This document shows positions 2,805-6,731 of a DNA stretch of 57,701 nt, piece after piece (the first letter of the stretch is position 1; each line of letters starts with the position of its first letter). The notes beneath the pieces are model-generated. The model did no database searches. It saw nothing but the letters and a program-made list of their open reading frames with translations, and was not told the DNA's origin. The translations under genes and the position numbers were made by a program. Where the stretch lies: assembly GCA_036517115.1 (NCBI GenBank), contig DATDYB010000010.1:1-57701 (forward strand). The letters are read 5' to 3'. Origin of the DNA: Minisyncoccota bacterium. GTDB taxonomy: Bacteria > Patescibacteriota > Minisyncoccia > Phycocordibacterales > PALSA-1337.

Positions 2805-3545
2805 TTATAGCTTTCCGTACAGTAACTTAAATATTTTCTTCTGAAAGTCAGCGAATTTTTCGTTTTCAATAACGAAACTTGTCTCAGTATTGAGGTCAAC
2901 AACCGCCACCTTGTGTCCGTAAATGAGCTGGATGATATTCTGATCGAATAAATCAAACTCTGAGGGTATAACTTTTGTCTTTTGGTTAAAATCGGGCTCG
3001 ACGTCCGCTTCTGTAGCTTTACTGCGTATCACATATCGTTCTAGATTTTTATTGTCTCTTTTTTCTCTATAATCTTTCGGTAAATATTTATTGGTTCTAG
3101 CCCGATCTTTCGATGAGGAATACCGGTAAAAAGCATCCCCTTTCTTGAGAGAGTCGACGATGTCTGAATACACCGATGAAATACCATTCCTTCCTTCGAG
3201 GAACTTTATGATGGGCTTATCTTTAGGTGCACGATAGAGATCTTCGAGGTCGGGTAGTGTTTCCTCAATATCTATACTCATTTCGCGCAATAACCCCCTA
3301 ATTTTCTCGGGATGTTCGGCAATATACTGTTTTCTCTTACCTTTTATGGTGATTGTTATAAGTTTGCGTTCTAGCAACAAGCCAAGCGCTTTGTAGACAA
3401 TTGGCCTGAACGTGCCTATATCTTTGGCTATATCGGAGATTGAAAGGGAAGTGCCTCGTTCTAAAAGATGGAGATACACTATTGTTTCAGGGTGGGTGAG
3501 CCCCAACTTCGTAAACAATTCCTTTATTTTATCAATTTTATCCAT
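2805..3545 (-). CDS. TrmB-family (winged-helix) transcriptional regulator
   Basis: The N-terminal wHTH (LGLTHPETIVYLHLLERGTSLSISDIAKDIGTFRPIVYKALGLLLERKLI) is typical of the TrmB family. Confidence 0.8.
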   Translation of the reverse strand: MDKIDKIKELFTKLGLTHPETIVYLHLLERGTSLSISDIAKDIGTFRPIVYKALGLLLERKLITITIKGKRKQYIAEHPEKIRGLLREMSIDIEETLPDLEDLYRAPKDKPIIKFLEGRNGISSVYSDIVDSLKKGDAFYRYSSSKDRARTNKYLPKDYREKRDNKNLERYVIRSKATEADVEPDFNQKTKVIPSEFDLFDQNIIQLIYGHKVAVVDLNTETSFVIENEKFADFQKKIFKLLYGKL

Positions 3546-3708
3546 ATTTGTATTAAATTAATTACACTTTTAGTTACTGAAAATACCCTTTTATAAAGCC
3601 ATAAATTTTATTAGTGCCCTTACTTACGTACATATTGTACTCCATACTATTACAATTTGTCAACTCTTCTGGTAGTCTTATGGGTAGAGGCTCTTCACAA
3701 CAAACAAT

Positions 3709-3717
3709 CCCCCCCCC
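3709..3717. repeat. C9 homopolymer tract
   Basis: Nine consecutive C residues end 16 nt upstream of ATG3734. The tract lies at the junction of two overlapping open frames (3614.. and 3657..). Confidence 0.9.
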
Positions 3718-3733
3718 AACAGAAAGGAAAAGT

Positions 3734-3916
3734 ATGCCAGATCGCGACAATAACAACGAACGCACTAGCGAATCCAGTTACCAGCAGCAACGAGATGCAT
3801 ACGATGACCGCTGGAGGTCATGGTTGCGCGGAAGCAGCACCGGTATGGACATCGACGGGCGGTGTATCAACCCCCGCGACAGCAGTTGCGATAGCAACGA
3901 ACGCGAGGAGTGCTAA
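3734..3916 (+). CDS. small charged Cys-containing protein (60 aa)
   Basis: ATG3734 has a good RBS (AAAGGAAAAGT). The RNY-like codon pattern favours this frame. The longer GTG/TTG-initiated versions in the track are not supported. Confidence 0.4.
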   Translation: MPDRDNNNERTSESSYQQQRDAYDDRWRSWLRGSSTGMDIDGRCINPRDSSCDSNEREEC

Positions 3917-3951
3917 ATGACTTACAGTTTGAGGGTCTGACCAAAACCCTC

Positions 3952-4033
3952 TCTGTCTCGAGATGTGTATCTCGACTGATGATTCCAGTCTTCGCTAAAG
4001 CTACGGCTTGGCAAGGCAAAAGGATGAAACAGA
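3952..4033 (+). ncRNA. type III hammerhead ribozyme (HHR-B) with enlarged stem II
   Basis: Stem III UCUGU 3952-3956 / ACAGA 4029-4033, cleavage-site C3957 (GUC). Stem I is UCGAGAU/AUCUCGA (3958-3964/3969-3975). Core CUGAUGA 3976-3982. Stem II is UUCC...GGAU (3983-3986/4022-4025) with a ~35-nt insert. GAA 4026-4028. Positions 10.1/11.1 form a U-U pair. Confidence 0.7.
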
Positions 4034-4112
4034 AGTTCTATGACACAACAACAAAAAGAAAGGTAATGCTATAAACATCAATTCATTAACTAACCTGTTA
4101 GAAGAAAATGGC

Positions 4113-4622
4113 GTGTCCACCAAAACATGGGGGACTGGAAAAGCGAAAACAATCCACCACCTACTCTCCGAAATTCAAGAGGGTGAAACTGTTCTGGAAG
4201 AGACGGAAAAAGGACTGGTCCGGAAAACCTCATTCCTCACCATCCATGTTTTATACAAGGATGAACGGGGAACGTTCAAACTCTTCGAGGAAAAACAAGT
4301 GTTCACGGACGGTAGAACACGAACACGAGATCAATCATGGAGCGTGGCAGAGAAGATGAAGGCCACCGACGTGAATATCCAGGCAGCCGCATTAAGAGCC
4401 CTTGAAGAAGAGTTAGGAATTATGACAGGAGTGAAATTTTTGGGTGAGATAACAACCACCGACGAACTCCGAGAATCACCATCATATCCCGGACTCACCG
4501 CGCAGTTCAAGATGTTCAACCTTACGGTGCACATCGACTATCATGAGTATCGGCCTGATGGTTACACGGAAGTACAGGAAGATAAATCAACGTACTTCAA
4601 ATGGAAGCATGTGGAACCTTAA
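4113..4622 (+). CDS. NUDIX-family hydrolase-like protein
   Basis: Partial Nudix box ...AALRALEEELGI... in a 169-aa protein. Start is GTG4113. Confidence 0.6.
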   Translation: MSTKTWGTGKAKTIHHLLSEIQEGETVLEETEKGLVRKTSFLTIHVLYKDERGTFKLFEEKQVFTDGRTRTRDQSWSVAEKMKATDVNIQAAALRALEEELGIMTGVKFLGEITTTDELRESPSYPGLTAQFKMFNLTVHIDYHEYRPDGYTEVQEDKSTYFKWKHVEP

Positions 4623-4667
4623 TCTGTTCCCATCGCTAAAAGGTTTGCTCGTTCCCTCAAAACGAGC

Positions 4668-4718
4668 TCTGTATCGAGATGCAGGTCTCGACTGATGATT
4701 CCAAAAGGATGAAACAGA
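4668..4718 (+). ncRNA. type III hammerhead ribozyme (HHR-C), minimal
   Basis: Stem III UCUGU 4668-4672 / ACAGA 4714-4718, cleavage-site A4673 (GUA). Stem I is UCGAGAU/GUCUCGA (4674-4680/4685-4691). Core CUGAUGA 4692-4698. Stem II is UUCC-AAAA-GGAU 4699-4710. GAA 4711-4713. Confidence 0.75.
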
Positions 4719-4781
4719 AATACTTTTTACACAACAAACAAACCCGACATCAAATAGATATCATCCACAACAAAGATTGCT

Positions 4782-5180
4782 ATGAAATACACTGATTACG
4801 ATCTCCGATTATGTGCAGGTGAAGAGTGGCTTCCCTCTAGTGAAGATACGCGTATGAGTTGGCGCAAGGCGATGGAGAAAACGTTACAAGATCCGAACCT
4901 ACGACTACCCCATTACTCTGATTTAATCCACGCTGAAGAAATGGCTCGGAAAAAACCGGAACTTCGTGAAAAATTTGGTGAATTGCAGAAAGGTTGGCCA
5001 TACTGGAGCGCCAACTCTGAAAATCATGATCCAAATTCAATGTATGCCTGCATTGTGACAGAGGATCATCTGCATTATAAATCACATACTCAAAAATACC
5101 TGGGGTACATGGTGAGATTCATTCGACAAACGAATCCAAAGAGCGTGGATAAATCACACAATAACGTAACAGAAGTATAA
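4782..5180 (+). CDS. DUF1566 (Lcl C-terminal)-like protein
   Basis: The pattern ...LRLPHYSDL...YWSANS...MYACIV...GYMVRFIRQ matches the remembered WRLP...YWSS...VR.VR signature. Confidence 0.5.
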   Translation: MKYTDYDLRLCAGEEWLPSSEDTRMSWRKAMEKTLQDPNLRLPHYSDLIHAEEMARKKPELREKFGELQKGWPYWSANSENHDPNSMYACIVTEDHLHYKSHTQKYLGYMVRFIRQTNPKSVDKSHNNVTEV

Positions 5181-5198
5181 GCTCAAAAATTTCAATTA

Positions 5199-5228
5199 CC
5201 TCTACAATAAATTGTAGGGGTTATTTTT
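5199..5228 (+). terminator. rho-independent terminator
   Basis: CCTCTACAAT-AA-ATTGTAGGGG followed by TTATTTTT. Confidence 0.8.
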
Positions 5229-5250
5229 AAGTCCAAAGCATTGGTGCTTT

Positions 5251-5658
5251 TTACAACAATTTCTTTTTTGCCAATTCTTCGGCGAGGAGTTGCGGCGAAA
5301 CGATCTTTACTCCATGAACGATCGTACCCCACAGTTTACCGAAATCTCTTTCATCGCCAGTGAGCAAATGGGTGGCCTGACCTGCGATCGCTCCGCCGAG
5401 GATGGGAATATCTTTCGAAGCGATCGTTATTTCAATAGTGGTGGTAAGCGATGAAACGATCTCACACTTTTTTACCAATGATTCTAAAGAGGGGACCGCT
5501 TTTGAGGCTTTCAAACGGAGGTTCCGATACGCCTCCTCTATCGCATATACATTAGTGAGACAAGTACCTTGATCCAAAAGAACACCTACGAACATCCGCA
5601 TTCTACTATGCGGCAAGGCGGCGCTAAAGAGAATGTTTGCGTCCAGAAATACCCTCAT
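5251..5658 (-). CDS. vapC: PIN-domain toxin (VapC-like)
   Basis: MRVFLDANILFSA... and ...LLTGDERDF carry the PIN acidic residues. It overlaps the upstream antitoxin ORF by 4 nt. Confidence 0.8.
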   Translation of the reverse strand: MRVFLDANILFSAALPHSRMRMFVGVLLDQGTCLTNVYAIEEAYRNLRLKASKAVPSLESLVKKCEIVSSLTTTIEITIASKDIPILGGAIAGQATHLLTGDERDFGKLWGTIVHGVKIVSPQLLAEELAKKKLL

Positions 5659-5888
5659 TTATTTTTTGGAAAATACTTTTTGAGCGAATCTTCGTTGTTT
5701 TTCTTAAATTCATTAAGTCGTTCATCTGTGTACATTTCAATAGGAAACGTGGCCCCACCTCGAAGGAGGATCCCTTCACTGGTTTCTTCCGCCAATACCT
5801 GACCTTCGCCTTGTATACCCAAGCGCTTCCTAAGCTCTTTAGGGAGGGTGAGAGTTCCTCGATCGTTTATATTTATTACTTTTGTCAT
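5655..5888 (-). CDS. vapB: AbrB/MazE/SpoVT-type antitoxin
   Basis: INDRGTLTLPKELRKRLGI is an AbrB-type swapped-hairpin motif. 77 aa, upstream of and overlapping the PIN gene. Confidence 0.8.
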   Translation of the reverse strand: MTKVININDRGTLTLPKELRKRLGIQGEGQVLAEETSEGILLRGGATFPIEMYTDERLNEFKKNNEDSLKKYFPKNK

Positions 5889-5933
5889 ATATTCAGTATT
5901 TCATACTTTCAGTAAAAATGCAACGTGCCTCCT

Positions 5934-6731
5934 CTAAATACTAATATCTATGGAAACAGGGCAATGGTCAGATCCCATCACATCTGCAAGAATTTCCGCT
6001 TTTTTTACTTTATTCTTTAGGGAGTTAGAAACTAATACATAATCTATCCTCCAGCCGACGTTCCGAGCGCGAGCATTGGACCAGTTGGACCACCAGCTGT
6101 AATGACCGTTGCCTTTGGTAAATATTCGAAAGGTATCAATGAAACCGGCATCGATAAAGGCTTGAAAGCCCAAGCGTTCTTCTTCGGTAAAACCTTTCAA
6201 ACCTTCGTTGGCATCCGGTCGAGCCAAGTCATCGGGGGTATGGGCAACGTTAAGATCGCCACAGAAAACAACGGGTTTCTTCTTTTCTAATTCCTTACAA
6301 TAGGCAAGAAAAGCAGGATCCCATTGCTTGTACCGAAGGGGAATACGGCTCAAGTCGTCCTTAGCATTGGGAGTGTAGACCGTCACTACGAAAAATTTTT
6401 CATATTCCGCTGCAATAACCCGACCTTCTGTCAGAGGATCGCCATATTTGTCCGCGCAGAGCCAAAATTTATTAACAATTTTCTCCGGTAAGCCATTTAA
6501 CACAGCCAGAGGCTTTGTCTTTGTAAAAATAGCCGTGCCGGAATAGCCTTTTTTTGTCGCTGAGTTCCAATATTCTTCGTACTGAGGCAAATCCACTTCG
6601 GACTGGTGTTGCTCGGCCTTGGTTTCCTGTAAACATAAAATATCCGGCGAATATTTCTCCACAAAAGGAAGGAAGAGGCCTTTTTTATGCACCGCGCGGA
6701 TGCCGTTTACATTCCAAGAGATGATGTTCAT
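5934..6731 (-). CDS. xth: exodeoxyribonuclease III
   Basis: MNIISWNVNGIRA..., CLQETK, ...GDLNVAH...SDHCPV are EEP/ExoIII motifs. Start moved to the internal Met at 6731. Confidence 0.92.
   Translation of the reverse strand: MNIISWNVNGIRAVHKKGLFLPFVEKYSPDILCLQETKAEQHQSEVDLPQYEEYWNSATKKGYSGTAIFTKTKPLAVLNGLPEKIVNKFWLCADKYGDPLTEGRVIAAEYEKFFVVTVYTPNAKDDLSRIPLRYKQWDPAFLAYCKELEKKKPVVFCGDLNVAHTPDDLARPDANEGLKGFTEEERLGFQAFIDAGFIDTFRIFTKGNGHYSWWSNWSNARARNVGWRIDYVLVSNSLKNKVKKAEILADVMGSDHCPVSIDISI

Follow-up and report, generated by a model that had tools for sequence, protein, structure and literature searches.

A predicted type III hammerhead ribozyme with a lineage-specific stem II insertion between co-directional genes of a Patescibacteria chromosome

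Contig DATDYB010000010.1 of an ultra-small Minisyncoccota bacterium (Patescibacteriota, assembly GCA_036517115.1), analysed here over 57,701 nucleotides (the window), contains three sequences resembling hammerhead ribozymes, designated HHR-A, HHR-B and HHR-C. HHR-B (3951-4034, + strand) lies between a small open reading frame (ORF) and a NUDIX-like gene, has a U·U apposition in place of the Watson-Crick pair at positions 10.1/11.1, and carries an extra hairpin in loop II. The question raised by this locus is whether such a sequence is a genuine hammerhead and, if so, whether it would still cleave. We put at about 95% the probability that HHR-B is a genuine member of a type III hammerhead family carrying a lineage-specific insertion in stem II, and we incline to the view that it still cleaves usefully in the cell. 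The large subfamily to which it belongs occurs in phage contigs and above all in Patescibacteria genomes. It is characterized by U10.1·U11.1, stem II UCC/GGA, loop II NAAA and loop I UGNGUR. Save for the rare extra hairpin, HHR-B is an ordinary member of this widespread family.

Architecture and detection of HHR-B

Every core base is present in HHR-B, together with a 7-bp stem I and a 5-bp stem III. The 5' strand of stem III (UCUGU) and C17 occupy 3952-3957, as assigned from the sequence, the model alignment and helix covariation in the family, and the predicted scission site lies after a GUC triplet, between C3957 (C17) and 3958. Stem I (3958-3975) is a 7-bp hairpin of UCGAGAU (3958-3964) and AUCUCGA (3969-3975) around a GUGU loop (3965-3968), giving a loop I of U-GUGU-A (UGUGUA) that matches the family consensus UGNGUR. 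It is followed by the core strand C3-A9 (CUGAUGA, 3976-3982), which falls in invariant columns of the family alignment A1 described below, and by the 5' strand of stem II, comprising U10.1 (3983) and UCC (3984-3986). Beyond loop II, the sequence and the model alignment place the 3' strand of stem II at GGA (4022-4024) and U11.1 (4025), and the remaining core bases G12, A13 and A14 at 4026-4028. Stem III is closed by ACAGA (4029-4033), in which A15.1 (A4029) pairs with U16.1 (U3956).

HHR-B therefore contains the complete hammerhead core (C3 U4 G5 A6 N7 G8 A9 ... G12 A13 A14), the A15.1-U16.1 pair and a non-G base at position 17 (C3957). Its topology is that of type III, with loops capping stem I (3958-3975) and the stem II domain (3983-4025) and with stem III open. 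The feature that it lacks is a Watson-Crick pair at 10.1-11.1, where U3983 opposes U4025. Direct reading of the sequence agrees with an initial annotation, made from the letters alone, in the GUC triplet with a cut after C3957, in the CUGAUGA...GAA core, and in a stem II that starts with U-U and continues with UCC/GGA (3983-3986 / 4022-4025). That annotation also gave HHR-B and HHR-C identical stems I and III, which is accurate for the strands of HHR-B but not for the stem I 3' strand of HHR-C, which reads GUCUCGA rather than AUCUCGA.

The canonical three-helix hammerhead is the minimum free energy fold of the isolated 84-nt HHR-B RNA (-24.4 kcal/mol), with the insert forming a hairpin and stem I pairing with a probability of 0.8-1.0. 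Predicted helix probabilities (0.90-0.94 for stem I, 0.60-0.65 for stem II and 0.07-0.29 for stem III) fall in the spread of insert-free relatives.

A hammerhead descriptor identified three sites in the window (HHR-A at 992-1050, HHR-B, and HHR-C at 4668-4718), compared with none in 300 dinucleotide-preserving shuffles. Rfam at the gathering score reports only a tRNA in the window and misses all three hammerheads. At a relaxed threshold, the scores of HHR-A (31.8 bits) and HHR-C (33.6 bits) lie under the gathering score of 48.5 bits for RF00008 (Hammerhead_3), and HHR-B still goes unreported because of the insertion and the U·U pair. Two covariance models of the subfamily were compared with the window: R1, built from the fixed-length members of alignment A1, and R2, built from 40 members with a seed that contains three with longer loops II and excludes HHR-B. 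Under R1, HHR-C scored 69.5, HHR-A 37.0 and HHR-B 31.3 bits (the last with its 3' half misaligned), and the next best sequence 10.5 bits. The misalignment is probably due to the length limit of R1 and its insertion penalty. Under R2, HHR-C scored 70.3 bits, HHR-A 45.6 bits (as a member of the seed) and HHR-B 62.5 bits (E ~2e-15), the last being aligned end to end over 3951-4034, and only these three hammerheads reach E<=1 in the window.

The covariance-model scoring that had been proposed as a check on HHR-B is thus favorable, with HHR-B standing outside the seed. Without its insert, HHR-B would differ from the relative at L105:5230-5282 (76.6 bits) at only 4 of 53 positions. The original identification as a hammerhead is upheld by the core, the three helices, the H17 cleavage site, the end-to-end model alignment, and the insert-free hammerhead found at the orthologous position in related loci.

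A compact subfamily and a rare expansion of loop II

The exact stem II frame CTGATGATTCC-N-GGATGAAAC (UUCC/GGAU) is present in 83 IMG/VR loci, and the UUCC/GGAU frame with AAA at the 3' end of the loop in 36 loci of GTDB species-representative genomes, labelled as Patescibacteria lineages (22, including 13 Saccharibacteria), unclassified (7) and other (7). The loop is 4-5 nt long in nearly all UUCC/GGAU loci and stems I and III covary in most of them, while many further copies with other stem II sequences occur in the fetched loci. Alignment A1 contains 102 distinct 53-nt members of the subfamily, chosen by a descriptor that requires the stems, which inflates the percentage paired but not the diversity of pair types. 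Standard pairs are formed in 93.9% of its cells (71.0% when shuffled), changes on both sides are seen in 14 of the 16 pairs (10.5 when shuffled), and the covariation score is 0.694 (0.216 when shuffled). Slid-partner controls are all far lower.

The 15.1/16.1 pair is U-A in 102/102 relatives. Position 10.1/11.1 is more variable, with G-C in 28 members, A-U in one, and a non-pair (almost always U·U) in 73. The earlier suggestion that U-U is tolerated here is thus borne out, with 73/102 members non-Watson-Crick at this position and orthologues that switch to A-U or G-C. The U·U pair is not new, because the text of Perreault et al. 2011 (PMC3088659) already reports U10.1-U11.1 as an active natural variant. 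Being common in the family and matched by this published variant, it does not disqualify HHR-B as a hammerhead. The identity of the cleavage base in A1 varies with the 10.1/11.1 pair (A17/U·U 53, C17/G-C 18, A17/G-C 10, C17/U·U 10, U17/U·U 9), a correlation that is only a lead, as sampling is biased by the search pattern and by relatedness.

There is almost no variation in loop I (U14 G15 N G17 U18 R19) or in loop II (N A A A), even among 36 copies outside the search-pattern selection, and loop II is 4 nt long in about 90% of subfamily copies. The invariance points to a conserved tertiary contact between loops I and II, of the kind that the text of PMC3088659 presents as a general rule for fast natural hammerheads.

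In HHR-B, the loop II region (3987-4021) is 35 nt long, compared with 4 nt (NAAA) in its relatives, and consists of A3987, a hairpin (3988-4017) and AAAA (4018-4021). The net insertion is about 31 nt, located after the first loop II base and before the conserved AAA. The stem II insertion of about 35 nt proposed in the initial annotation is therefore correctly placed inside loop II, and the figure of 35 nt describes the whole loop region rather than the gain. The inserted 30-nt hairpin, GUCUU-C-GCUAA-A-GC(UACG)GC-UUGGC-AAGGC, has 12 bp, two single-base bulges and a UNCG-type UACG tetraloop, with an energy of -13.1 kcal/mol versus -7.2 +/- 2.1 in shuffles (z -2.9). In the predicted fold it lengthens stem II beyond a 1x4 internal loop. 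An AGC-UAAA-GCU element previously read within the insert is absent, as the sequence is CGCUAAAGCU, in which pairing is possible for GC/GC only. Both presumed contact elements survive in HHR-B despite the insert, loop I in its consensus form and the AAA next to the 3' strand of stem II; interruption of loop II (A, 30-nt hairpin, AAAA) leaves the AAA present but the tetraloop geometry lost.

The insert is real sequence and not an assembly artefact, because HHR-B is 100% identical in six independent assemblies from different samples. No insert sequence variants were found, all contigs with an identical NUDIX-like protein being 100% identical across HHR-B (in a comparison that left out the variant cluster member P0024). 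The contigs of L122, L123, L125 and L126 end inside HHR-B (at window positions 3953, 3953, 3957 and 3985, respectively), presumably as a result of the repetition of its 5' half in HHR-C, and ribozyme repeats of this kind may fragment Patescibacteria assemblies. There is no second copy of the insert in the window or the fetched loci, and no Rfam match to it at E<=10. A 16-nt identity to the insert in L110, in a hairpin just 3' of a tRNA gene, is probably due to chance.

Related loci have the same gene order as the window. In L128-L131, a TrmB-like gene (65% identical) is followed by a small ORF, a hammerhead, a NUDIX-like gene (52% identical), a second hammerhead and an ORF. L134-L136 are short contigs that do not reach the TrmB-like gene, in which the NUDIX-like homologue is flanked by a hammerhead on each side, and L099 is syntenic with the window at the DNA level. 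At the junction equivalent to that of HHR-B, the hairpin and hammerhead are likewise present, the loop being a plain GAAA with no insert, and insert-free hammerheads are present at both junctions in L128 and L134-L136. Stem II in the orthologues is UUCC/GGAU, AUCC/GGAU (with a Watson-Crick A-U at 10.1/11.1), or GUCG/CGAC at the second junction. Since the orthologous junctions carry a hammerhead with a plain 4-nt loop, HHR-B is orthologous to ordinary hammerheads, and its 31-nt hairpin is a lineage-specific insertion.

Insert-bearing copies among the ~190 hits are limited to HHR-B, L120 and L002/L073. No insert-bearing copy in the UUCC...AAAGGAU frame was found in IMG/VR viral contigs, and the sole match to this frame in a GTDB representative (L088), whose upstream flank lacks stem I, is taken as chance. 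JGI metagenomes contain one insert-bearing copy, L120, with a 25-nt loop II hairpin, the AAAA kept, and an R1 score of 44.7 bits. In L120:5856-5985 the hammerhead is located immediately 5' of a strong intrinsic terminator-like hairpin and U tract, which would place it in a 3' untranslated region (UTR) and not between genes. The phage members L002:6136-6230 (- strand) and L073:2753-2847 (+ strand) have ~40 nt (two hairpins) between core A9 and stem II. This lineage scores 27.8 bits under R2 and has a close relative without its insertion (L027:10826-10881). Loops II of 11-14 nt occur in HHR-A and L116:1858-1921, in which loop I also differs. When canonical GUCC/GGAC hammerheads with long loops were sought, other architectures were returned, in which the strands of stem II are 7-23 nt apart, a result that serves only to indicate an upper range. 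Loop II insertion thus seems to be rare and to carry no evidence of selection of its own, and in HHR-B it is best understood as an expansion that the ribozyme tolerates, perhaps at the cost of slower cleavage.

Genomic context and proposed function

The best-supported reading, by analogy with other bacterial hammerheads, is that co-transcriptional self-cleavage of HHR-B cuts a polycistronic RNA into gene-length units. In this mechanism, the small ORF (ORF60), the NUDIX-like gene and the downstream ORF132 would be transcribed as one RNA, in which HHR-B would self-cleave after C3957 once stem III forms. The upstream product would have a 2',3'-cyclic phosphate end just after the hairpin at 3931-3951, shielding it from 3' exonucleases, while the downstream product, with 3958 as its first nucleotide, would carry a 5'-OH and lead into the NUDIX-like gene through the folded ribozyme body. 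HHR-C would act likewise at the next gene junction, and each cleavage product would so gain its own stability. The sequence analysis establishes what the motif is, the family to which it belongs, its orthologous position and an insert that is lineage-specific and folds on itself, while cleavage, organization as an operon and protection by the flanking structures are inferred. A role in mRNA processing has been proposed for bacterial hammerheads (PMC6765202), and clustered gene-flanking hammerheads cleave polycistronic RNAs in vitro, according to the text of PMC3088659.

The gene arrangement is compatible with such a unit. ORF60 (60 aa, 3734-3916, + strand, with no Pfam or PHROG match) starts at ATG 3734 after the Shine-Dalgarno (SD)-like sequence GAAAGGAA and stops at 3914-3916, 35 nt 5' of stem III of HHR-B. 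A run of nine C (3709-3717), which could be slippage-prone, lies just 5' of this SD-like sequence, 17 nt before the ATG. The NUDIX-like gene (4113-4622, + strand) has a weak match to Pfam PF00293 (NUDIX, E 0.0011) and homologues with 32-57% identity (P0002-P0023), and its reading frame is open and conserved. ORF132 (4782-5180, + strand) is co-directional with both. A terminator scan found a terminator-like hairpin and U tract at the end of the three-gene unit (5198-5221, + strand), and no terminator-like site between the three genes. In the family as a whole, 77 of 115 copies are located between co-directional ORFs, with median distances of 35 nt after the stop (as in HHR-B) and 26 nt before the next start.

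The hairpin upstream of HHR-B, also present in the initial annotation, consists of GAGGGU (3931-3936), the loop CUGACCAAA (3937-3945) and ACCCUC (3946-3951) on the + strand, as predicted by folding, and abuts stem III with a 0-nt linker. Hairpins at least as stable as -8 kcal/mol terminate no more than 3 nt from stem III in 62% of family copies versus 8% of control segments (Mann-Whitney p ~1e-16 for the association). In Saccharibacteria-type copies, the loop of the upstream hairpin begins with bases complementary to the 3-6 nt that immediately precede the hairpin (L085, L093, L096, L101, L102, L105, L115, L117, L118 and L135). These pairs covary (AGAG/CUCU, AAGU/ACUU, GGUU/AACC) and are followed by an A-rich stretch. 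Permutation of partners in register gave p ~0.002, and a generic test with shuffled loops was not significant, so that an H-type pseudoknot abutting stem III in these copies is suggestive only. The corresponding complementarity in HHR-B (3925-3951) is limited to CAG/CUG.

On the 3' side, a UCUUU core (consensus ~GUUCUUUGAA), scored in the first 18 nt after the ribozyme, follows 23/56 Patescibacteria-type copies compared with a 3.8% background. The loci include L085, L091, L096, L099-L102, L107, L110, L116 and L118, as well as positions 4034-4043 and 1081-1091 of the window, and the sequence after HHR-B is GUUCUAUGA. Complements of UCUUU are AAAGGA, which loop II forms together with the 3' strand of stem II, and the SD-like AAAGGAG.

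Several observations weigh against HHR-B as a genuine, working hammerhead. Rfam gives it no hit, even at E<=10, and its predicted stem II probability (0.60-0.65) is at the low end, below most relatives. In 777 kb of viral loci, the 103 hits that reach 42 bits all span 50-56 nt, a narrow size range that suggests a size-constrained contact between loops I and II, which the insert may disturb. Viral contigs, GTDB genomes, metagenomes and contigs encoding the identical protein yielded no relative that shares the insert, which therefore has no covariation or conservation evidence of its own. Finally, the NUDIX-like gene has no in-frame ATG where its orthologues start, and the locus could be decaying. 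The conserved N-terminal peptide of the orthologues (...LLEGKGVST...) is encoded in frame 5' of the called GTG (4113), up to ~4065. The only ATG in the vicinity (4066) is out of frame, and an in-frame AUA (4071), 7 nt downstream of GAAAGG, may be the true start. The gene would then either begin at a non-canonical codon or have a damaged start.

The alternative that survives best is that HHR-B is a crippled or very slow relic, in which the insert broke the size-constrained loop I-loop II contact, cleavage is no longer useful at cellular Mg2+, and the sequence has not yet decayed. A functional contact is implied by the 4-nt loop II of ~90% of copies and the near-invariance of the AAA and loop I, and the rarity of insert-bearing copies, the restriction of this insert to one population and the loss of the in-frame ATG used by the orthologues are all in keeping with a relic. 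Against this, HHR-B has lost none of its 11 invariant core bases, its three stems or its consensus loop I, the AAA still adjoins stem II, and the NUDIX-like frame is open and conserved. The insert itself is not random sequence but folds cleanly into a stable, self-contained hairpin capped by a UNCG-type loop. We consider a relic unlikely, though worth serious attention, and retain mRNA processing by an active HHR-B as the preferred interpretation.

Appended stem II domains control hammerhead activity in engineered allosteric hammerheads, making stem II a known control position. The insert might by extension be a regulatory module, with binding of a protein or small molecule switching cleavage and tuning expression of the NUDIX-like hydrolase. 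Its two bulges and internal loop are possible recognition sites, and Perreault et al. speculate in the text of PMC3088659 that large loops are usable for control. We regard this as improbable, given that the insert shows no conservation, covariation or recurrence in the searched sets and no Rfam match, that the orthologous junctions carry a plain tetraloop, and that a simple hairpin has little potential for a ligand pocket. The stronger proposal that the insert is a natural sensor domain, making HHR-B allosteric to a protein or metabolite and gating NUDIX-like hydrolase expression, draws on nothing beyond the position and structure of the insert and is more doubtful still.

A further idea is that HHR-B and HHR-C act as a pair to excise the NUDIX-like mRNA, with 5'-OH and 2',3'-cyclic phosphate ends, for circularisation or handling by an RNA repair ligase. 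Two same-strand hammerheads flank one gene both here and in the orthologues, and this fate was raised by Perreault et al. for clustered hammerheads, who by the account in the text of PMC3088659 detected no circular or spliced products. No ligase gene was identified in the window, and most family copies occur at single junctions beside an SD and start codon, an arrangement consistent with simple mRNA processing. Excision of this kind, with the ends that it would generate, seems to us a slim prospect. A chance resemblance, or a repeat element without catalytic RNA meaning, could be read into the Rfam blank for HHR-B and the scores of HHR-A and HHR-C under the gathering score, but has next to no probability in view of the 0/300 shuffles with a descriptor match and the ribozyme position conserved between orthologous genes, and is already refuted by the R2 score of 62.5 bits and the strong stem covariation over >100 relatives.

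HHR-C (about 4667-4719, + strand) is located 3' of the NUDIX-like gene, with a predicted cut after A4673. Its loop I (UGCAGG) departs from UGNGUR at two near-invariant positions, and it may have a weaker tertiary contact despite the best model score in the window. HHR-A (about 991-1051) is a predicted type III hammerhead cut after C997, with a canonical G10.1-C11.1 pair, the core CUGACGA, a GAAG loop I and an 11-13-nt loop II ending in UUC. The UUC could pair with the GAA of loop I, a feature shared with L116:1858-1921. HHR-A is preceded by a hairpin (969-990) and followed by a long hairpin (~1056-1076) and then GGUUCUUUAAA.

The HHR-B region is bacterial chromosome. The window encodes dnaA, dnaN, polA, a class A penicillin-binding protein (PBP), rpsO-pnp, a type IV pilus ATPase, VirB4/TraG-like proteins and a TrmB-like regulator, and its best DNA matches are Saccharibacteria metagenome-assembled genome (MAG) contigs with 64-74% identity. 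The chromosome has the appearance of a Patescibacteria genome of the Saccharibacteria type. A prophage location is ruled out, as window positions 3000-6000 have no phage database similarity and PHROGs matches of the neighbouring genes are negligible. A PIN-domain protein and a MazE-like small protein, a probable toxin-antitoxin pair, are encoded on the - strand (5251-5888), convergent with the hammerhead operon.

Significance and comparison with known systems

No paper linking hammerheads to Patescibacteria was found in the literature searched, and standard annotation with Rfam at the gathering score overlooks the hammerheads of this window. A cassette consisting of a hairpin (sometimes a pseudoknot) abutting stem III, a U·U type III hammerhead and often a UCUUU leader recurs between co-directional genes, many times, in Patescibacteria chromosomes and phage contigs, where it is missed by Rfam thresholds. 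If the copies do cleave, they would constitute a protein-independent mRNA punctuation system in minimal-genome bacteria. This wider pattern merits more attention than HHR-B alone, whose own value is modest and lies in its being a natural test case for the stem II expansion tolerated by a compact hammerhead subfamily.

HHR-B resembles RF00008 (Hammerhead_3) in its core (CUGANGA...GAAA), A15.1-U16.1 pair, non-G base at 17, capped stems I and II, open stem III and cut 3' of position 17, and differs in having U·U instead of G-C at 10.1/11.1, a 31-nt loop II hairpin and no Rfam report. Engineered stem II aptazymes carry a structured domain attached to this stem. In RiboJ-type insulators, a hammerhead placed just 5' of an SD and start codon creates a defined mRNA 5' end that keeps the ribozyme body. 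HHR-B combines a structured domain appended to stem II with a ribozyme body that would be left on the downstream mRNA, but it is natural and its appended hairpin is not known to bind anything. The candidate protective hairpin of HHR-B is on the 5' side, whereas the insulating hairpin of RiboJ is on the 3' side.

Among natural systems, the U10.1-U11.1 and weak-stem-II variants of Perreault et al. share with HHR-B a very short stem II opening with U·U that supports cleavage. The text of PMC3088659, to which this comparison is confined, does not cover a stem II insertion, an abutting upstream hairpin or enrichment in Patescibacteria. The clustered prophage hammerheads in the same article (PMC3088659, Fig. 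3) are likewise same-strand copies that punctuate a polycistronic unit, for which gene-length mRNA processing is proposed. The neighbourhood of HHR-B differs in being chromosomal, with no phage genes and with the same chromosomal synteny in related loci. The mammalian Clec2 discontinuous hammerhead, as described in PMC6765202 and the text of PMC3088659, still cleaves with its core halves split by a very large insertion. That insertion is hundreds of nt long, in a eukaryotic 3' UTR and in another subfamily and context, but like HHR-B it represents a natural hammerhead in which an insertion separates the two halves of the core.

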